From Ophelia neglecta (Eukaryota), in contig OZ260667.1 of NCBI GenBank assembly GCA_965285935.1, forward strand, positions 25,234,001 through 25,298,000: DNA of 64,000 nt. Reading direction: 5' to 3'. Below are positions 3,503 to 45,980 of this stretch, in pieces. A program made the translations under genes and the position numbers. Under the pieces are notes generated by a model. That model saw only the letters and a list, made by a program, of their open reading frames with translations, did no database searches and was not told the origin of the DNA. Numbering within the stretch: the stretch's first letter is position 1; the number at the start of each line of letters is the position of its first letter.

Positions 3503-3720
3503 GTTAGTCCGTACTATTATGTTTATTATTTGTTTCTTAAGTTATAAAACTCAGAACCGAATTTCCCGACTGTCATAAATCGCCTCTTTACAAGGAAAAA
3601 AATAATGCCACGCAATCAATTTCAAATTGCTAAATCGTCAGCAAAATCTTAAAAGAACACTTAAATGTAGAGTTCGATGATATTTTAGGGCAATATTTTT
3701 CAATTATAATTACTTCAGAT

Positions 3721-6700
3721 ATGGCTAGGCGACTTTTGATTCTCGCCATTTTGGCGTCGTTTGGGTCGCAGTTAGTTCGGTCAACAGGTGGGTGTATAGT
3801 TACAAAATAGTACCCAATACATCACCGTGCGTGATTATGAAGCAGAAAACGTGATTGATCGACATTATAAATTGTTTAACTGCCCTTTCTATTGTAAAAT
3901 GTAAAAAGATGTGGGGAACGAATTTGAATAAATAACTATTTAAAAGATGACATCCGATTAATGTCTAATTGATCTAACATATGCACAGACGAGTTTGAAG
4001 TACGTGTCAAGGAACATCATCATATTTTGAAACGATCTCCCGGCGAAGCAAGCCTATCAAGGGACAAACAATACGGTTTTAAGAACTTCCGCTTTGACCT
4101 AGAGGGTAGAGAGGTCAACCTAAGGCTGAAACGTAATAATGGTTTTGGAAAATATTTTCCAATTTATGAGCATGTGGGGAGGACAAAGCGAGAGGTGAAG
4201 TTTCGACGAGAGGTGAGTAACAGAAAACGCAAAAAATGCGATAATTTCCAAATAAACACTATCCATCGCATACTCATTCTGTTCATAATTTCTTTCACAG
4301 GAAACTGCCTTGTATCACGACGCGGACAACTTCGCTGCTGTACAGGTGTCTGGCAGAAAACGGCGCTCACTGGTACGCCTATCTGAATAAAATCTATTGC
4401 ATACATGTGTTCTTTGGCACCTTTCATCTAAATGTATAGGATATTGTAGTTTATTTGATTTAACAATGATTTTTGTTTGCCTACCTTCATGAAGCGAGGT
4501 GTGTTCCACCACAAAGGCGATATCTACAGTATAGAGGCGACACCTAGGAGAAATAAGCGAGGCGCCCATAAAGTCAAACGTGTCAAAGGTACTTCTGAAT
4601 TTGCCTTTCATAGCCTTATTCACGGCACATACGTGTGCATCATCTCGGCAGGGGTACACTGTGTGCCCATGTCATTATCGTACAATTATACCATTAACAT
4701 ATTATTGTTTTAAACATATCCTGCAACAATTAAAATTGAGTATTATCCTGCTTACTGATGTGGGTAGCAGCAAGCGCGAGCTCAATGGTTTTGCTAATGT
4801 TTAGTCGTTATTTATCTTACTATTTCCTACACCTCATACTGCTAGCCTGAAAATAATTACAGGGAAGTTTCATTACATACTCAAAAACAGCGGAAACGGA
4901 AGTGGACAGGTTTAGAAGCGTTTTGTTCCTATTGTGCTGATTGTCTCTTAAATAAGCATACAGCAGACTGTTTTATATACTTTTAAAAAGTCTTGCATTT
5001 GAGTGTGTTTCAACCCATATAGAGTTAAAACAAATCGAGCTTGGGCAAACTCTGCCTTTCTTGCGGTTAATAGCAGCCATGTTAGAACTAATCACAATTG
5101 CAAAACACGGATTGTGAACTGAGCGGGGAGAAGGCAATGTTATTGAGTACTGCAGTACTGCAATTAAATATTTCGCCCTTGCTTTACTAATTCTTTCTAT
5201 CTTCAAAGTCGAATGCGTCTTATTCATATTAAGCCATTGGTTATACAAAACATGAAATAGGTCACTTTAACTCCTTCTGAACCCCTTTGTTCGGAATCGT
5301 TAGTACCCCACCTCAGACGTCGGTGGAGTACGTTCCAGGGAGACAGCAAGGATGTAGAAACCGGAAATGAGGACATTAAACTGACCATCAATGGCCTCAC
5401 TCATACCCTTCGGCCTGCACATAAACGACGGAGAAAATGGTCACCCAAAAAGAAAAGGGCGAGATTCCTGAGGCGCAGGAGGGCAGCACCTCCAGTGTAT
5501 GATGTCGAGTTGGATATAGTTGCAGACTGTTCAATGTGGAAAAAGTCAGTCACGTTATCTGATATCTCTATACTGTGCCTAGCATGTGGGTTTACCCGAA
5601 AAGGTGTGTCTAAATAATCAGTACATAGCATGTCACTTATTCTTTAAGTTACTACGCAAATAGCGCCAATGATGAGACCAAGGCAACTAAAGATTTGGCA
5701 GATTACATTTCAATACAGGTTAACACGGTACGTTTACAATAATCTTTTGATATAAAGGATTCTTTTAGAAGACTGGTGCCCGATACTTTCATGAATGCTT
5801 GGAAGACACTACTCGCACACATTGAATCGTCCGATATCTTGCTATATACTTGTCTTTTTTTGAACCGTAGGCCGATCTGGTGTTTAAGGCTATTGACCCG
5901 ACCACAGACGGATTCTCAGTCAACCTTTTCATCCGAAAACTTCACATATTGAAGGTAAGACGCCACATAAACTGTATCGTTATGCACAAGTTTGTCTCAC
6001 ATTAAGCATAATTAGAATCTATGACGTTCATGAATGCATTTGATTTTTTTGTCGCAGGGTAGTTTAATTGAGGGTAAATTGAAATCTTGCAATTTTCCCT
6101 CAGTATCGAGTCGTATATTTTCGTTACAGCGATCAAACAGTGGCTTCATTATTATTTCATACCATCTATTACATTTCACAGACATTAAATTACTAAATTT
6201 ACTTATCTGACAAAACCTACATGGTTAAAATCCATCAAATTGTTTTTCACTCAGTAGCAACCTACAGTTGTATGTGTTTTTTTGTATGGCATGACGTTCC
6301 CTTGATTCCTTTGCAGTCGGGCAGCGCCTGTGACTGGACGAGCAGTCACATTCGCCAGACAGCCGCGGACGACGATGATATTATCATCAACTCAACGGCC
6401 GTCCTCTCGGGTCTGCATGCTTGGAGCTACCCCAAAATTAGCTACTCTTCCCCAGACCACGTCCTTCTCTGGACCAGGTCAGTATTCTGTCTATCAGGGC
6501 ATATGATACTCAACAACTAATTTATGCTAACCCATTGTACTCTGTCTTTATGAGCCCGTCGTGTACTAAAAATCAGGTTTAGAGTTATGTTTCGGGGTCT
6601 AATGAAACATTTGTTCTGTGGAGACCGGAATAGGGCATTCAACCCTGTATCAGCTTAGGGGCCGAAATATCACAATTTATTGTAACCTACTATTGGTCCC

Positions 6701-8909
6701 AGCTAGCTAAAGCATGTTTTCATTCAGGCACAACCTTGATGGGCCTGGGACAAGTTTCTCTGAGCAGGACACAGGAAAAATCGGTAAGAGTATACCCATC
6801 GCTAGTATTGTATTGAACATAAATAAATATGAACAATATTTTTCCCTTGCCTGCCTCAAAATCTACTGTCCTTTATTGAAGCTGTGTACTCTTCATTATT
6901 TCTAAAAAGAAACTTCTACTTCGACATCGCCTATCAATTTGTGGTATATGGCATAATACAATAATATTTATATTTGTGTCTCATTATTCTTGTTCAATCC
7001 CCATCCCATCCCATCCCCCTCCCGAAAAAAAAACAGGTATGGCTTGGCTGGCTCGAGTATGTTCGCCTGGATGGGACGTATCAGTTGTAGAAGACTCGAG
7101 TTTTTTTACTTGGAAAACCGTGGCTCACGAAATAGCCCACAAGTGAGTGCATAGATACTAGGTGTCGTCAAACAGATTGGAATGTGTTTCATTGTGTAAA
7201 AAAAATATTTATTATTAAATAAATGAAATGTTTTTATGAATTGATTGTATTTGAGGGATGAAACTCGATAGTCTTAAAAAATCTACGATGTCGATATCTA
7301 TATCTCGGACCAAATCAAAATACTTAAAGTATATATCTATAGCTAATAGTTGTATATTTGTAAAAACGGTGTTGGTTGTGTAAATGAGCGATCGTTTGGG
7401 ACGTAGTTAATAATAGGGTAAATACAAGAAGGATAAACTGATAACTGTGATATATGTTTACCAACGATAAACATATTGAGGTTAAAATTAAAACTATTCA
7501 CTATCACAATAGACTACACCGAGTAGAGTTTATGCAGGAAAAGAGGTCATAATATCAGTTTGCAATTTTCAATTGTATATCATTTCATCCGTCAATAAAA
7601 CCTGACACTAAAATGAGATATTTTTTTTGCATTTTAGCCTTGGAAGTCCTCACGATGGAGACCCTACCAAGAACACAGATGGGTGTCCTGTAACCTCTGG
7701 TTTCATCATGGCGCCCTCTAACGGCCAAGCAACGCAGGCAAACATTGGTAACTCGTTCCGCTTCTCTCCCTGTTCCATAGGGTGGATGAAATTTGTACTC
7801 GAGGGAAGCTACGACGGGTAGGGCTTACTAGTCATAAACATTTCTTTCATTGTCAATATGCTAAATCAGAAAAGGCATCCACCCCTATTCCAAGTAGTGT
7901 TATATGCGAAACATATTTACGGTAGTCAATAAAAATGTCATCAAAAACTTCAGTTTGCATACTACTTGCCGTCTAGGGGTGTATATTCGCCAGACAAATC
8001 AAAATCGTGAATCGGAAATAGGCCTTTCAATCGGTCCTTAATCATCGCCAAACATCTGATGCACGAACAGATAATCCAGTCCCCGGTTCCTTACAATTAC
8101 GGCTATGCTTGAAATGAATTGAACACAATTGCTTGTGACACAACTTGCCAAGTAATGAAGTCTACAGTTTTAACGCTACGAGTCAGAGCCCAAAATATTT
8201 AGTTTCAAATGTGCAGAATAATGCAAACAATATTTTGTAATAGGATTTTGCTAATACAATGTGCCGTGATAGAACAAAAGTCCTATTTCGAACGTTACAC
8301 CTAAGCCTGAACAGATATAACTGTAAATAAGGAGGCTGAATTAATTTTATGTTCATAATTCAGCCATTAAGTTATCATTCGATGCCGATAATTTAAATGT
8401 GCCTAAGTTTACCGGACAACATTTTCAGTTACCCTAAGCTGTGTTTAACTAACCGACAATGCTCTGATGCTGATTCAAACATTAACCGCGATGTCAGCCA
8501 AATGATAGGAATCAGCTTTAACCCCGACACCTTCTGTGAAGACCAGTTTGGAGCAGGATATTTTCATGACGTAATGGCTTTCAACTATTCGATTATCCCA
8601 TATCGTTTTAAATATCATTCATTCAATATTTGCATTCTATCAAAAGAAGTAAGGCTTATCATGCAAACAAACATGGTAGGTCCAATAGAATGATAAGTGA
8701 GCTGAATAGATATTTCGATCATATAAGTTTGAACTATATGCATCTACGCCATTTAAACGTATACTAGGAGACTGATACGGCTCACAAGGACTCGATGTGC
8801 TGGCAGATGACGTGTAAGAAGCTGGCCAGCCAGGGCTGGTGGGTGGCACCGAGTCCGTACGCAGCTCCTGAGGGTGCCGACTGCGGAGGTACCACTGACA
8901 AGGTCATTT

Positions 8910-8940
<31 letters not shown>

Positions 8941-9683
8941 CCAAATTGTGTGTTTATATATATATATATAAACAGGGAGCTATCCAATCACAATTATCAA
9001 CTGAAATATATTATAGCATTTACGAAAATCATCATTAATTAATTCAACCCCCTTCATGTATAACCACTACTACCCTGCAGATTTTTTATTTCAACTTTTA
9101 CAGTGGTGTCGATCTGGTGATTGTGTATCCAAGGCGTCTCAGCCGGCACCTTCAGCTGGTAATAAGTGTACACTATTAAATTAAGGATTTTTTTTACAAT
9201 GACCGGTGTTACAGTCCAAAGTTCATTTTATACGTGAATAAGCATGATTACGATTTATGACAACCCTTGATCGACTAATGAATGTTTTCAACTCGAATAT
9301 ATCCATATTTATTCAGGAGGATCAAGTTCATGCACGTCTTCTTCGATCACAAAAACGGCACCGTCGAGTAAGTCATTTCGATACCGTCGTTGTTGTTCGT
9401 TTCATTTTACACTTTAAGTTATGTAGAACATGTTATTCAGCCCGGAAAAAAAACGCTTGATCAACTGTATAATACCGCTTATAGTTTATTCCCATGCACG
9501 ATATTTAAAATTATAATAATTTATTTTGTAGCCTGTACCAGCAATCCTCTAGTCCAGCTTAATCTAGGAACTTCTGTAATCGGTTGTTCAGAGGTACCCC
9601 TCAAGAGACCAGACTTGTGTATACTTATGCCGGAAATAGCCCAGTACTGCTGTAAAGATTGTTATGAAGCTGGTCTTATATAA
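3721..9683 (+). CDS. Secreted M12B (reprolysin/ADAMTS-type) zinc metalloprotease, MIG-17-like architecture, copy A (632 aa)
   Basis: 16 coding exons, all GT-AG and phase-consistent: 3721-3787, 3989-4212, 4301-4372, 4495-4588, 5304-5544, 5649-5727, 5871-5954, 6317-6477, 6728-6783, 7037-7142, 7638-7817, 8429-8570, 8768-8902, 9104-9158, 9317-9367, 9532-9683 (1899 nt). Signal peptide MARRLLILAILASFG. Furin site RRRR|AAPP. Catalytic start YDVELDIVAD. Zinc motif HEIAHNLGSPHD, Met-turn GFIMAP, FSPCS. ADAMTS disintegrin-like PEGADCGG...WCRSGDCV. C-terminal 6-Cys PLAC-like domain ending YCCKDC. AATAAA at 9790. Confidence 0.93.
8910..8970. repeat. Interrupted (TA)n microsatellite in an intron of protease A
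   Basis: Two TA runs, 8910-8940 and 8955-8970. Confidence 0.9.
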
Positions 9684-11661
9684 GAGGGCTCTTAGATAAC
9701 AGCTCCTTTTGAGGAACACTTAGTCGGAAAGTACTACGCCACCCATTCTGTAGAATGTACACTCTAGTTATAGCGGATGTAAACCGATTAATAAAGTTTT
9801 ATCACGGCAATGACATGAAACAATCATGTGTGTTCTTTCGTTACAACCCCCATTGCATGTTGTTATACCAGTAGCGATTTAGTCCTTTTATACAAGATTC
9901 CAAAATCAAATTATAATTATTAACCAGAAGCCAAAGTTTGACCTTGCAAGGTGTGGATGATGATTATAATGGGTTAATGATGCATTTAAATAATAACATT
10001 AAAGAAACAAATTTGCTTAACAGCCAGAACATTTCATTGCTTGTGAACGCTATAGCATGTCTAAAATAAACTTTCTATTGATATTTTAAGGTAAAATTTA
10101 CCACCATAAGAATATATATATATTTCATTCAACTGTTTCGAACATTATCATTGGTGATATGGTGAAGTCAGTCCGAAAATTGCCCTAATGTGTGCCTGAG
10201 CTGGGAATAAAGTGCAATTTTACCATATACCACGAAATGAAAAAGATTGAGTTCGGAGTAGAACCCTCATAAATGTGCTGAAAAGAGCATATGAAATATA
10301 TTGACAGGTTTCAAGAATTTGTTTAAGCAAACCAATGGCCTGAATACTAATTATTTTAGTTACTATTTATACTGACATAACCTTTATTCTGGCAAAATTT
10401 TTATTCGAGTTTGTTTGAAGCAAGTGGATTATTGTGAAAAAATAGACTACAGTTAAGCACACTATGCGTGTCGTGTTTAAGGCAATCCCTCATTCAAAAT
10501 TTCTTTGCAGATACAAAAGAATTTTTACAATGAACCAGCTGTTATGTATAAGTTTAATGGCATTAATGGATTTTTTTCATCCATAATAACTTTGCTGGGC
10601 ATGAATATTGCAGATAATGAAAGTCGATACTCTTATCTTCAGGAAAAGACAGCATATTTTACCAATTCAAATTATCTTGGCAGAGCAGAACCTGTGGGGT
10701 GTTGATTTTAATCTTTAAATTATTACCACAGATAATATCCATGTTTTCCTGTCAAAACCTTCATGATTATGAGATTGCAATAAACAACTGTCGTAAGTCA
10801 TGAAATAAAATTGATAGCATTAGGTATGGAAATACTGGGCTTAATAATGTTCGCACACAAGTCCAATTCACGAGGAAACCTTTAAAATTGACCACACAAT
10901 GATATTTCTATAACTTGTGTGTTTGCAACAGATCGTGTCGATTGAGAACTGAACACCGTTATTACGTGTTTTGCAGTATTCTGAATGGAAGTTTTTGCTG
11001 ACTACTTGATAATAAAATACTAGCTGTGCCCTAACCCTTTGTGTAAATGTTATTCCCCGTATTTGGGCCACATATATAAAAAGTATGTCTAGCAGCAAGC
11101 ATGAAAAATCACCCACATTGCCGTTTATTTTTGTTTTGTAATGGTAGTTACAATTGAATTAGCCTTTTGTTGGTTACCTTGTGTCCATGAGAACGGCTAA
11201 AGAAGACATAAAGCAGCATCCGGTTTCTAAGCTATCAAATAAAATCTTTTCGGTAAAAATATAATTCCCGCCTGTGGCAAATAAACCTGCCTACTGATTA
11301 AGGATTTGTAGTTAAATATCATGTTTTTTGATGTCTTGCACAATAAAACCTTGTGAACTGAGAGGTTATTATTCATTGTGCTGATATGTTATGTTTATAG
11401 TTCGCAACGTTAAATGTCATATCGTGGACGTATAATGTCAACCGTGGCCCAGGGCTCGTTCGTAACTTCATCGAAACATCAGTGAAACGATGGATACCAT
11501 TTTACAAACATGCAGTTTATTTATGTTTGATCGGGGTCGTTATTTATATAAAATTATTTTATTGCTTGGCAATATTTAATCAATAGATATCGTCGTTTGA
11601 TTTCATAGAGTTGTGGGATATTTGTCAAATCCTCAAGCCGTTAATCAGGTTACATATTTCG

Positions 11662-11807
11662 TATAAAAGCCATCAGAGCAAATATCTTCTTATATTCTGC
11701 TTTTAGGCAGAAACATCGCCAGATCAGGAGAGTCCGCTTCAGTTCCATTTTAATTCGTCCTGCTTGATACAGCCGTCGGTTTTATAATCGAATCATCGAC
11801 GATTATT
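11662..11807 (+). promoter_or_regulatory. TATA box and non-coding first exon of metalloprotease B
   Basis: TATAAAA at 11662; donor att|gtaagt after 11807; acceptor gccgcag before 11923, five bases upstream of the ATG at 11928. Confidence 0.55.
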
Positions 11808-11927
11808 GTAAGTTTGTTGAATATTACTTAATGATTCGTTTTTCTTCTTTTGACTTGTTTGAAATGATATTGTATAGCAACTCGTTTACGAGAGTTTTGA
11901 AATATAATGCTATTTGCCGCAGGTACA

Positions 11928-37230: not shown

Positions 37231-39417
37231 CTAGCATCTGGCAGACATACTCATACTGCTGGTGCTGGCCATGGAAGCCGTACTACGTATCTCTTCGATG
37301 TCGTCATCATCAAACATCTCGGCGGCCCTGTTCTCGTAGGTGATGGGCGTGGTATCTGACATCGAGTCTATCGAGGCCAAAAACAGTTGTGACAGATTGT
37401 CTGAATATAACTCTTCCTGCTGCCGCCGGCGTTTGTTAAAACGGCGGACCAGCCATGTGGCCACACACGCCACGCTGACCAGTATGATGAGGAAGGCCGC
37501 GGAGCCTCCGACGATATAACTCCGAACAGATATGACCCCCAAACCTTTATAGTTTTCTTCGCGAGTAGTCACTATTGTACAGTTTATCCGTACAGGGTGG
37601 TCCTCATGCCGCACCGCGATACAGAACTCGTACGCACATTGAGAACACAGTTCGCTAGCAGTATATGTGCGCATGTAGGGCTTTATATAAACATGCTGGT
37701 AGGTGTCGTTGCCGTCACTCTGTCGGTACAGTATCAGGTAGTCGTGAGCGTAACGAGTACTGCGCCACGTCACCGTTACCGCAGATGACGTCACACTTAC
37801 TATGATGACGTTGGCGCGTATATTTTTGACGTGAACTGTAGCAGATTTTTCGTCTCGCCCCCGAGGGTTGGAGGCGAGACAGGTATAAGTCCCGTGGTCC
37901 GTGCCCTGTACGTAGTGTATGTATAGCGTCCCCGTGGCTAACACTTCTATATGCCCGTCCTCTGGTCTGGATCCTGTCTTCAGTAGCCGAACATCATCAT
38001 TGATTAGTCCCGGATGGTGGGAAGGCAGTAGCCAGTTGGTCTGCGGTTTGGGAATGCCCACTGCTCGACAGTCGAGACGAATCTTATCCCCAAGTACCGT
38101 GTTATATTCCCGGGAGAAGAGGGGCAGCAAGCGGGGCTGACAAGAGCCCTGCAGTGACCCCAATGCGTCTTTGTCGCCCTCGAGCCGTGTTCCCTGTAGG
38201 TCAGGCGGTCCAGCGCACACCACTTCCCCGGGTACCTCCAGGGACAGATTACTCTTGCCCTCCACAACCAGCCAACCCAAAGTACAGTCACAAAACATAG
38301 GGTTGCCGTATAAGCTGAGGGATTTGAGCTGTGGCATGGTAGCCACGATGCCGCTTTCTACTGTGCTCAGATTGTTGTTGTGTAAATGGATAGTGGCTAG
38401 TTTGGGGAGGGAAAGGAATGCCTCCGGGTCTATGTACTGAAGGGCCTTGTTTCCACACATCTCCAACCGAGTTAACAATGGTAACTTTACGAAGGCCCTG
38501 GCATTTACCATTTCTAACATGGGCAGGGAGGTGAGTTTTAGCACTGTCACATTACACGACTGAATACTCCCTGTCTCAAGCCGGAGGAAGTGATTCCCAC
38601 TCATGTCCAGTGTCGAAATATTTGAGAATTTTTGCAATGCCATGGTGGGCACCTCGTTCAGATGGTTCTCTGCGAGGTTAAGCTCCAATAATAAAGGATC
38701 ACGCCCAAAAGCATCCTCATGTATATGTTTAAGCTGATTATTTTTCAATAACAACACCCGTAGGCTTGGCAGGCCACTAAAGGCACCGCTCTCCAACTGG
38801 TGAATATTATTGTCCTCCATATTCAGAGTTTCTAGTGACTGCAGGTCAAGCCACCATGTTTTTTTGATCGCAAATATTCTGTTTCCATGGAGATCTAATG
38901 ATATCAAATGAAATAGCCCGCGAAAAGCATCCGCGTGCATCAGTTCTATCTTGTTGTTGGCTACACAGAGGTGGGCGAGGGCGGGTAGAAGTGTAAAGCT
39001 ACGGTTGTGCAGGTAGTCGATTTGGTTTTGGTTTAGCACCAGATACTGCAGTGTTGGAATTAATACCGGCCAGTCTTCAACACTGTATATGTGATTATTA
39101 GTAAGGTCGAGTTCTGACAGGTTAGCCAGCTGTATTATCTTACCCAGAGTTTCTACCCGGATTCTGTCGGCAGCGAGGACAAGGCTTTCTGTGCCGCTGG
39201 TGATGTTGTGCGGCAAAACGGTGAGAAGAGTACGTCCACAGTCAACAGTTCGCCGCCGGGTTTGGGACAGGGAACTGAGTCTGACCTCACAAACACAAGA
39301 CGCCGGGCAATAAGGAGGCCACTGCGCATGGGTAGAATCCGTCTCATTAGTCCGGTTCCCTGTCCCGGAAGTGCCCATCACCATGAAAATCGCCAGTAAG
39401 CAAAAACTCAACCCCAT
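37231..39417 (-). CDS. LRRN: Leucine-rich repeat neuronal protein (LRRN/NLRR family): signal-LRRNT-LRRs-LRRCT-Ig-FN3-TM-cytoplasmic tail, single coding exon, 728 aa
   Basis: Uninterrupted ORF. The track's start at 39432 is TTG; the first in-frame ATG is at 39417 (MGLSFCLLAIFMVMG, signal peptide), with an in-frame TAG near 39460. LRRNT CPASCVC...VDC. About a dozen LxxLxLxxNxI repeats. LRRCT GNPMFCDC...CAGP...CQP. Ig LDCRAVGIPKPQTNW...DHGTYTCLASN. FN3 VTVTW...YEFCI. TM YIVGGSAAFLIILVSVACVATWLV followed by RRFNKRRR. Minus-strand AATAAA at 37117-37112. Confidence 0.93.
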   Translation of the reverse strand: MGLSFCLLAIFMVMGTSGTGNRTNETDSTHAQWPPYCPASCVCEVRLSSLSQTRRRTVDCGRTLLTVLPHNITSGTESLVLAADRIRVETLGKIIQLANLSELDLTNNHIYSVEDWPVLIPTLQYLVLNQNQIDYLHNRSFTLLPALAHLCVANNKIELMHADAFRGLFHLISLDLHGNRIFAIKKTWWLDLQSLETLNMEDNNIHQLESGAFSGLPSLRVLLLKNNQLKHIHEDAFGRDPLLLELNLAENHLNEVPTMALQKFSNISTLDMSGNHFLRLETGSIQSCNVTVLKLTSLPMLEMVNARAFVKLPLLTRLEMCGNKALQYIDPEAFLSLPKLATIHLHNNNLSTVESGIVATMPQLKSLSLYGNPMFCDCTLGWLVVEGKSNLSLEVPGEVVCAGPPDLQGTRLEGDKDALGSLQGSCQPRLLPLFSREYNTVLGDKIRLDCRAVGIPKPQTNWLLPSHHPGLINDDVRLLKTGSRPEDGHIEVLATGTLYIHYVQGTDHGTYTCLASNPRGRDEKSATVHVKNIRANVIIVSVTSSAVTVTWRSTRYAHDYLILYRQSDGNDTYQHVYIKPYMRTYTASELCSQCAYEFCIAVRHEDHPVRINCTIVTTREENYKGLGVISVRSYIVGGSAAFLIILVSVACVATWLVRRFNKRRRQQEELYSDNLSQLFLASIDSMSDTTPITYENRAAEMFDDDDIEEIRSTASMASTSSMSMSARC

Positions 39418-42400
39418 CTTGATGACAGACAATGGACTGAACCTTGAGCAGCCATGAAACTAAATGGCTATATCGCAAGTGAGAATAATAGCAATGTTTT
39501 GATTCAAATTTTAGTCTGATGCCACAAGATGGACTTTAGGATGCAATTACCAAAGCATCTGTTTAACGTGTCCGTTGGACCAGTGGAAGTCACATTGTTA
39601 ATATGGTGAGATCGAATGAGGTGAGCTCTCTTACTCACGTCCCGTGGGAGAGCACGGGATCGAGGTGCCCGCTCGTTTCCTAGGAGACGAACATGCTAAA
39701 TCAGTTAGGCGTCATAAGTGCCAATTGGTAATCGTGTTTCGTTATTCGTGTCCTTACACGACGGCCGAAGTCGCTCGCACGCTGGCAGCAGCCAGAATAC
39801 CCCGAGGCGGGATATCACGACTTACTCTGAGCTGGCCAACTACCAAGCTTACCAATATCAATATAGCTACCGATAAATAATGAGGGCACTGTGCCGACAG
39901 CCTTAATTCAATAGAGTAGTGTAATCCCCAACGGGACGAGACTCTCGCAAATCACGCTGGCGTCTCGGGATCCCTGTTGTATTGATGGATCCTTAGTCAT
40001 TTTCACTAACTCTCACGTTCTCTCATTTCCGTTGGCAAGCCTTCAACCACGGAAAAGCTCCATATTTCTGTTCCGCAGTTCGTGCGGTGGGCGGTGCTGT
40101 TTGTTTTAGACCGCAACTGCGAATATATGACGCTAATATCGTAAATCCTAGTGTAATCACGCCGGAAACTGATTGCACGTGACCGTTGCTGTGATCTCGC
40201 GAGTGCGCAGATGGCTTTACTAGAAATGAGTCAGTTCCACGCACCTCACTATCACTACATCGGACACCCTGAAAGCAGATCCAATTCAATCCGGGCTGTA
40301 CTAGTGGCTGGTGCCTGGTAGTGTTTGTACAAGATGAGAACTCCTGGTTTCAGATCAAACAACTAAAGGCAGGCAGACGACATTATGAGGCATATCAGAC
40401 GAGACGATTATTGCACTAGACACGTTTTCCTTTGTCAAGCTTGTCACTCTCTGCATTTATTTGTTGACAGAGAATATTATCTCACAGGTTCCTCGTTCTG
40501 TCGGCCACTTGAGCAAAGAGACTCCAGATATCAACTACCGGAATTCACAATAATCCACATGCAGCTCTCGCGAAGACAGACTACTTAAACAGTCAAAAAA
40601 TCGCAGAGCAAATTCCCAGGTCAGTGGTAAAGCCGGTTAACTTTAGTTTCCAAGCCCATCAAGCAGTCGTGAACGCTTCTCTTATCTTGTGTTCGCAGGT
40701 CACCTTTATCAGACATCAGTGGCAATCTGAAAGAGAAAATATCCAATTAACCTGCGGCGAATTCTAACAATTTTAGGCTAGCATTCAATGGTTGAAGGTA
40801 CTAAATCCATTACCTACCCAACCTGCGTAATGTATTTATGATATATTGCGTCGATAAGCGTAATTGGGTCTGACGACGTGCCAGTCAAACCTAAGGCTGG
40901 GGGCTGTTTGAAAGAGTCAGGGCATTCCTCTCGTTTGAACAGTTCTCCCTCTTTCCCTCTAAGTTTAGAAGCGATATGCTATCTCACGGGGTGGGTAACG
41001 GACTTATAGCCACCTCTAGTCCACCTCCCTTGACCGGACTCTTTCACCCATACAAGAACTGCCCATGGATCTGACGTATATAGTCGAATCCGTCTTTTGC
41101 GTTGGCACTTTGTTTTGGGTGGTCTGTACACCAAGCAGAATCCTCATGCTGTGGCAAAACAAAATGAGACAGGTTTCGCACACTTACCTGGAAAAACGTG
41201 GGCTCAGCCGGGCAATGTATTATTTTAGTATGTTTTTTATCGCTGTGCTCAGCAGGATATGCTATAAAACTTGGAAGTCATGTGGGAGAAGTGGAAAATA
41301 ACCTTCACTGGAGGTTGGATGTATACACGTTAATCTCCGGGCTTTTGGTACCGTTAAAGCTAACACTCCTGGTTCTGGGCTCCATTGAGCGACAAGGGGT
41401 GGTAAACATAATATATATGTAACTAGTTTTAGACTTTATCTGCAGTTAACTAAACCAGGATAGAAGATCCCCGATCGAAACAGAGTAAGATCTTATAACC
41501 TATTTACATGATATGTTTACTCGAGCAGTCCATGTTTATTAATGTTTGTTAACATACGCAAACTCAGCTATAGGCTTATGCGTTTTGTTGTTAATAGCTT
41601 ATCGACATACATACATAGATTGTTGACCTTGTCACTTAAGGATATGCCACGAATGTAGCACTAGACAAGGTTCCAATACATAGCCGTATGTTAGGCTCTG
41701 AAACTTTCAACTGAATATACAACATCATTGCCATATTAAACGCAATCAGGTATGCGAGTACATGTATATTGAAATCGATACTCTGCATTTGCGCTCCACG
41801 AACTAGGATTTATGTGAATTGATGGCATTGTTTGTGTTACACATACACTTAGATGATACTTAGAAAATGTCAACGTCCCTTGCTTTTTTGGAATCAAAAA
41901 GTTGCCTTGTGTCAGCCATGAGCAAACATTTGCAAAAAAAAAGAACTAAACCTGGTGTAGGATTTGGGTTTTTGGGGCTTAACGACACTGGTGCTAGGCC
42001 ATTATTATTTGGTGGAAAGTCACTCTCTTTAGACACTCTCAGGGAATAATGGTTGATAAATGAAGTGATAAATTGTCATAGGCCGAATTAGTTTTTGTGC
42101 TAAACAGACTTGCAGGGAACGAGTCTCTCGACCAGGAATTTCCGGCTGTATTCATATCATTTCTAGGAAGAAATCAGCAATCCCAAATAAAATTCAGGTT
42201 TTACAAAAAGTATGTGTATATAATGTGCATAAACAAGTATTATTTTTGTCTGTGGGTGTATATGCCTAAAATAATTCGAAACTCAGCAAACACAACTCAG
42301 ATTACAAGAATGGCCCAATCAGCAGTTAACTAAACCGAGGCGGAAGAGTTTCTTTGAAGTTCAGATTACATTCAGATCAAGTTCCCTGTATCTATCAACC

Positions 42401-44825: not shown

Positions 44826-45980
44826 AACAATTCCTAAAGGAAGTGATTCTGAATCAAAGCGATTGCTGGTGGGGTCGAGAAGAAAAGAGTCAATTGCATG
44901 GAGGTAAGCAATGGAGCAAGGGATTGCTGGAGGACCCTATTTACAAAGGATGTTAATCCAAGAGGAACATATTCCTGTGGGTAAGCGTGTCCTGAAGAAA
45001 CCGATTCCTGTAGAATCCAAGAGGAAGCAATCCTCGGAGAAAGCGATTGCTAGAAAAAGTGGATGCTCGAGGAAGCAATTCCGCGAGAAAGCGATTGCTG
45101 GGAGGTAAGCAACATTATGGAGGAAGGGATAGCTGGAGGAGGGGATTGCTACAAGAATTAAAACCACGAAGTCCTCATTCCTGTAGGGAAGCTTGAGGAA
45201 CCCATTCCTTGAGAAAGTGAATCCAGCCGGGAAGACGCGATTGGTTGATAAAGTGTTTGTTGGAGTCTGCAAAGGGATTGCTGGAGGGAGAGAATTCTGA
45301 AGGAAGAAAATCCCGGAAAAGAGCGATTGCTTGAGAAAACAAATGTCGGGGGAAGCAATTCCCGCATACAGCCATTGCTGGAAGGTAAGTAATGGAGAAA
45401 GGGTATGCTGGAAAACGTGATTGCTGTAGGAAGTTAATCCAGGAGAAACTGACTCCTGTGGGGGAACCGATTCCTGGAGAAGGTGATTCCACTTGGGAAG
45501 ACGTGATTGATGGAGGGAACAATCCCCGGAGAAAGCGATAGCTGGAGAAAGCGAAAACCATAGAAAAACAGTCCCTGGAGAAGGCGATTGTCGGAGGAAT
45601 CAACCACAGGAGGAATCGATAGATGAAGGAAGCAATCCCTGAAGAAAGCTAAATTTTTGAGGAAGCAATCGCTGAAAAAGCGATTACTGGAGGAAACAAT
45701 ACTTGCAAAAAACGATTGCTAGAGAGCGCGAATGTCAAAGGAAGCAATCACTGGAGAAACGGATATTTTTGGGGGAGCAATCACTGGAGAATGCAATTTC
45801 GCATTAAGATATCTCTGGAGTAAGCGATTGTTGGAGAAAACAATTTCTGGAAATGGCGTTTGCTGGAGGAAGTTGCCCATGAAGAAAGCGAATGCCGGAG
45901 GAATAGATTGAAGGAAACGAATCTAAGACAAATTTATTGCTGCAAGAAGCTAGTTTGGGAGGAAGCGATTCCTTGAAGAA
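44826..45980 (+). repeat. Degenerate purine-rich minisatellite; ~15-16 bp subunits forming ~31 bp dimers (GGAAGCAATCCCTGGA-GAAAGCGATTGCTGGA)
   Basis: Many recurrences of aagcgattgctgg and ggaagcaat. Higher-order blocks beginning g(g/a)aggtaag...atggag..aggg recur at 44901, 45101 and 45381. Confidence 0.85.

Follow-up and report, generated by a model that had tools for sequence, protein, structure and literature searches.

Gene A, the first of two tandem intact protease genes in the window (the whole analysed stretch of 64,000 nt, on contig C12 of a 762-Mb animal assembly, G000), belongs to a known protease family and is a genuine outlier in composition, with a prodomain of net charge +32 (53 K/R and 21 D/E in 188 residues) compared with +2 for its neighbour B. 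The explanations that can be offered for it are of known kinds. We tentatively favour the view that the prodomain of A would bind polyanions and carry a convertase site that is cut very efficiently, and put the probability of this at about 0.4.

A (3721-9683) and B (11928-17277) are both on the plus strand and have an identical exon series. Coding exon 1 of A (3721..3787) encodes a signal peptide, recognized by eye from its Met, basic N-region and hydrophobic core, and a GT donor comes next. The prodomain occupies exon 2 (3989..4212; 19 K/R and 11 D/E), exon 3 (4301..4372), exon 4 (4495..4588; 10 K/R and 2 D/E) and most of exon 5 (5304..5544), which is 241 nt long in both genes and contains a basic cluster, a linker, a polybasic 21-mer (5420..5482) and the start of the catalytic domain. 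The mature part (5483..9683) follows in 12 exons with the M12B catalytic domain, a Cys-rich domain, a short linker, a C-terminal Cys domain and the stop codon. Splice ends are AG/GT for the first five coding exons of A and B (the exon 5 donor GT of A is at 5545), and the HExxHxxGxxH zinc motif, divided between two exons, and the Met-turn are intact in both genes (in A, HExxH lies at 7126-7140, and the third His with the Met-turn lies within 7639-7818). Both genes were analysed exon by exon, and positions in the fold were transferred from the relative P0107 by means of a profile.

A profile of 13 relatives was matched by 20 of the 24 exon pieces at E < 0.1 (one of the 24 out of frame). Reprolysin Pfam matches to single exons had E 6e-4, under the cut-off because the exons are short, and the B counterpart of A exon 2 gave a weak Pep_M12B_propep match that was also below the cut-off (E 0.033). 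As in M12B proteases, both genes have a signal peptide (by eye) and a prodomain ending in a basic site. The thrombospondin type 1 repeat and spacer that follow the Cys-rich domain in canonical ADAMTS proteins were not seen, there being no TSP1 Pfam match on the scanned exons of A and B, with exons 14 and 15 read by eye only. A prodomain, an M12B domain and an ADAMTS Cys-rich domain without thrombospondin repeat make up the MIG-17/Sona-type architecture, and a Pfam scan of relatives found a prodomain, an M12B domain, an ADAMTS Cys-rich domain and small Cys domains, with ADAMTS_CR_2 in all four scanned relatives of MIG-17/Sona-like architecture. The C-terminal exon of A and B is of the C-x-C-x-C-x-CC-xx-C type and has no Pfam match; MIG-17/Sona-like proteases have a PLAC domain at the C-terminus. 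The relatives that carry names come mainly from molluscs and nemerteans, which makes a lophotrochozoan host probable; one of them (P0164) is called 'mig-17-like', and the structure model of a relative best matches ADAMTS1/4/5 and pro-ADAM17. By domain order, then, A and B are classified as thrombospondin-less ADAMTS-like M12B proteases of MIG-17/Sona architecture. Their mature parts are 64% identical. In the Cys-rich domain (8768-8902 in A, 16391-16501 in B) eight residues, two Trp and two Lys among them, are inserted in A relative to B, a possible difference in substrate specificity. Genome searches with A exons 2 and 5 returned A and B only, ESM Atlas searches with the same exons gave unnamed or weak matches, and a protein search with exon 5 found no match among longer proteins, which is weak evidence; no ortholog of A was found in these searches.

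The charge of A was compared with that of 32 usable prodomains from 50 related proteins longer than 380 residues (nine incomplete and nine unaligned at the marker were dropped), each prodomain being defined as at most 190 residues preceding the boundary. Net charge in these relatives was -0.9 ± 6.0 (range -12 to +8) and the K/R fraction 0.13 ± 0.03, compared with 0.28 in A, which lies about 5 SD above them in both measures. The last 21 prodomain residues align without gaps between the two genes and hold 14 K/R and no D/E in A, but 7 K/R and two E in B (13590..13652, plus strand); the 32 relatives have 4.7 ± 2.0 K/R there with a maximum of 10. Since none of them reaches 14, equally basic ends are not the rule in the family, and the description of A as unusually basic in the sequence-only reading stands against B and relatives alike. 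That B 'lacks the feature', as the same reading put it, does not describe the situation well: B falls within the range of the relatives, so that B appears typical and A a derived outlier. Full furin motifs number five in the prodomain of A, one in B and 0-3 in the 32 relatives. Within the genome, the 14 other M12B boundary exons have at most 10 K/R (those of L015, with 6, and L022, with 4, were counted by eye), and three of the 14 have no KR/RR site. The best 21-residue window of A has 14 K/R compared with 9.9 in exon shuffles (P = 0.002), and basic patches are not unique to A, because the paralog L022 has 11 K/R in 21 residues elsewhere in its prodomain. L022 forms a three-gene group with L021 and L033 (contig C8, about 4.49-5.78 Mb), in which a basic patch ends prodomain exon 4 (8-11 K/R in 21) and the boundary sites are full. 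Three related proteases on contig C9 (L018:3465, L019:5657 and L020:6377) have no KR/RR before the catalytic domain and may be activated by another route.

The excess charge of A is spread over all four prodomain exons and is not confined to the 21-mer. Charge-changing differences between the two prodomains favour A in 35 cases and B in 9 (p = 1e-4), in 26 and 8 without the 21-mer (p = 0.003), and in 20 and 8 without the 21-mer and all furin motifs (p = 0.036). Because 13 of these differences involve the loss of an acidic residue, the charge itself has changed and not only the cleavage motifs. Basic residues gained and acidic residues lost throughout the domain would fit a polyanion-binding surface better than cleavage alone. 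Against such a surface count the lean of the mature part in the same direction (25 differences favour A and 16 B) and the contrast between prodomain and mature part, which is not significant (Fisher p = 0.095). The latter result would also be expected from drift in a weakly constrained domain or linker, with a charge that serves no purpose other than to preserve one convertase site. The 21-mer, which was picked after the fact, shows pN of 0.46 near pS of 0.55, as in a relaxed linker, and its position in the P0107 model is a disordered linker (residues 162-190, pLDDT <50); in ADAM17, density is missing at the matching region. Nevertheless, the distance of A from its 32 relatives and a bias that runs in one direction across all prodomain exons make drift an unlikely explanation. 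dN/dS between A and B is 0.27 for the prodomain and 0.15-0.16 for the mature part, at a dS of 1.3-1.8 that is near saturation; the mature part of A is under purifying selection, and since the ratio is unable to separate selection from relaxation, no positive selection is shown. Together with open reading in all examined exons, canonical checked splice sites and an intact zinc motif, the low ratio in the mature part makes it very improbable that A is silent or decaying and its charge without biology.

GC3 is similar in the two genes (0.49 in A and 0.46 in B) and Arg codons are mixed, which argues against simple slippage or base bias; a slippage or microsatellite origin is ruled out by these mixed codons, the equal length of A and B and the absence of a tandem repeat there. 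An electrostatic match to a more acidic catalytic domain was likewise rejected, because the mature part of A (net charge about -18) is less acidic than that of B (-28). The middle of A exon 5 (5363-5443) resembles the 'beta-hairpin plus basic site' element of exon 4 in the family, with a score of 13.8 bits compared with 15.2 for the true exon 4 and none of 500 shuffles as high, for a piece chosen by eye; the B counterpart gave no score against the element, and the piece is possibly an old internal repeat. Contigs from three public runs of one sample, which may be the source of the assembly and so are not independent of it, were compared with positions 3600-17500. Among the differences listed (10 more lie outside this set), none falls in 3600-6900 and many in the region of B; the contigs cover the A segment, where neither a difference nor an indel is listed within 3989-5482. 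A short contig has a 34-base partial match to the 21-mer DNA, which was attributed to chance.

Five in-frame R-X-K/R-R motifs (the prototype furin motif is described in PMC6682551) are present in the prodomain of A: RLKR (4123-4134), RTKR (4180-4191), RKRR (4355-4366, at a predicted hairpin turn), RNKR (4549-4560) and the predicted boundary site RRRR (5471-5482). By alignment, B has RLKR, LTR, YQR, RGAR and NKKR at these positions, and ten residues that start after the first two mature residues are identical in A and B. The motifs, counts and coordinates given earlier from the sequence alone are all correct, but the list of sites omitted a KR common to A and B (4030-4035 in A) and the basic cluster that opens exon 5 near 5315-5323 (RRR in A, RR in B), and it overlooked that RGAR of B (13303..13314, plus strand) is a minimal R-X-X-R. 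The number of motifs in A exceeds the mean of 1.3 in exon shuffles (P = 0.007), and dibasic pairs number 18 compared with 8.7 expected from composition (P = 0.0002). Three of the five motifs occupy family-conserved positions. RLKR aligns with the L-x-L-K-R strand of the family, whose two Leu are shared without exception by all 13 relatives and which lies in a beta-strand of the P0107 model (overall pLDDT 68.9), and it is probably structural, as had been suspected. RNKR is at the internal processing-type site of the family, which carries a basic motif in 10 of 13 relatives (five full, four dibasic and one R-X-X-R); the position is a low-confidence loop in the P0107 model, and B keeps its R-X-X-R there. 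RRRR is at the boundary. RTKR and RKRR are specific to A, and two such motifs are about what chance would give, with 1.3 expected from composition.

At the boundary, 18 of the 32 relatives have a full R-X-K/R-R, 7 are dibasic only and 7 have neither. Because 14 relatives are thus without the full consensus, the boundary of B, which ends in a dibasic KR without P4 Arg, is ordinary. Furin prefers Arg at P4, and the earlier view of this boundary as the weaker furin site agrees with our comparison: B is likely the poorer substrate.

The excess of dibasic pairs and full motifs over the composition of A would suit a difference in processing only, in which furin would process A at several sites, early and to completion, so that it leaves the cell active, and B would be cut later or by another convertase. 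Such arrangements have precedents. ADAM9/10/17 need an upstream cut besides the boundary cut (PMC7590139, PMC12184519), and the upstream KR shared by A and B is positioned like their upstream site, from which we infer equivalence. ADAMTS5 is cleaved after five Arg (PMC9620172), and in ADAMTS10, whose site is degenerate, processing is poor (PMC8275829). ADAMTS propeptides commonly carry several furin sites, for example three in ADAMTS17 (PMC5296908), but often only one is used, and ADAMTS1 and ADAMTS5 are cut at one of several (PMC8275829). Moreover, a single full motif suffices in the 18 relatives above, and many changes in A are acid losses away from any site. Processing alone is hence possible, but we consider it doubtful.

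The sequence-only reading had proposed a two-in-one product, with either a series of released cationic peptides or a propeptide tethered to matrix or mucus. The latter option is our best guess, while the former was not supported. For convertases to free antimicrobial or cell-penetrating pieces from the prodomain, its very high charge would be suitable, and a cut at the basic cluster that opens exon 5 could release a linker piece of 53 residues (5324-5482). The antimicrobial peptide of pepsinogen stems from its prosegment. Nona-D-arginine has some bactericidal activity (PMC6682551), and pepsinogen and similar protease precursors hide cryptic antimicrobial peptides, which like the basic region of A are cationic stretches inside a protease precursor (PMC12469503). 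Unlike these, the 21-mer lacks amphipathicity and consists of cleavage motifs. It is 19% hydrophobic, and its helical moment of 0.07, compared with 0.27 in shuffles, is lower than in 95% of them. Cationic amphipathic antimicrobial peptides have a hydrophobic share of about 40-50%. Dibasic clusters are present at both ends and in the middle of the 21-mer, with no full motif just upstream; carboxypeptidase trimming follows convertase cuts, and the two together would strip the 21-mer of most of its charge and leave a few neutral residues of it. The other prodomain pieces are strands of a folded domain. Unlike in a prohormone, the sites lie in or between strands of this conserved beta-sheet domain, three of the five being family-conserved, and neither repeats nor peptide-family matches were found in the prodomain. 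A release of cationic peptides is therefore improbable. It is more improbable still that the prodomain became a second product after the duplication, with the 5324-5482 piece or larger fragments acting as host-defence or cell-penetrating peptides in secretions. An assay might well show activity of a synthetic 21-mer, which alone would be no proof of a natural role. The likeness of PKKKRAR to a nuclear localization signal, pointed out earlier, would be of no consequence in a protein that carries a signal peptide.

If the prodomain of A does bind polyanions, A would be a secreted ADAMTS-like zinc protease whose zymogen is held by the charge of its whole, strongly positive prodomain on heparan-sulfate proteoglycan, sulfated mucus or a granule matrix. 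A furin-type convertase would then cut the Arg-rich linker at 5482 and free the acidic mature enzyme, and the extra basic motifs would help to dismantle the inhibitory prodomain rather than yield a peptide series. B would be the untethered copy, less readily cut by furin. Inhibition by a cysteine switch was ruled out, because prodomain exons 2-5 have no Cys. A very good furin site, however, would favour early removal in the Golgi and leave little time for an extracellular tether.

Comparable roles of prodomains have been described. The proform of MIG-17 is secreted and depends on its glycosylated prodomain for localisation (PMC11232982, PMC5560668); prodomain fragments of Sona are found in the matrix (PMC4989167), and the propeptide of ADAMTS9 is still attached after cleavage (PMC8275829). 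A resembles MIG-17 and Sona in its signal peptide, prodomain, M12B domain, Cys-rich domain and short C-terminal Cys domain (PMC4989167), a likeness of architecture, orthology aside, and we propose that its prodomain takes part in targeting as that of MIG-17 does. In contrast to A, MIG-17 is targeted by prodomain N-glycans and activates itself (PMC5560668, PMC11232982), whereas A has a strong predicted furin site and no sequon in prodomain exons 2-5 (B has one; junction-spanning sequons were not counted), so that charge could take the place of targeting by glycans. PCSK9 likewise has a basic cluster in a protease prodomain, whose residues bind heparan sulfate and serve in cell-surface capture (PMC5593881), but its fold is unrelated, the cluster is six residues on a folded surface, and the prodomain is never released. 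Vertebrate ADAMTS1/4/5/9/10/17 are like A and B in having at least one furin site, a multibasic boundary (five Arg in ADAMTS5) and paralogs with degenerate sites (ADAMTS10), and unlike them in that A and B have no visible thrombospondin repeat or spacer and no Cys in prodomain exons 2-5. If the tether exists, A and B would be a natural pair that differs in destination or activation time by prodomain charge alone, and would bear on how ADAMTS-like propeptides control targeting, which the reviews consulted call unclear. The gain would be modest, as the principle of prodomain targeting is already known from MIG-17, ADAMTS9 and PCSK9; among the papers listed in literature searches, none dealt with a polycationic prodomain of a MIG-17-like protease from an invertebrate.

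Elsewhere in the window, a single-exon frame of 742 codons at 37231-39459 (minus strand) encodes a membrane protein with LRR, Ig and FN3 domains, presumably LRRN-like. Two long, GC-richer open frames on the plus strand (2-904 and 21373-22044, the latter with a hydrophobic stretch at its end) have no Pfam match and are probably exons of neighbouring genes. A purine-skewed region of degenerate 16-base repeats with overlapping open frames, also without Pfam match, is present at 44937-45718. On contig C1 of the same assembly, an intronless M12B gene of 872 codons (L025:1430) is ADAM10/17-like by eye and perhaps a retrocopy.
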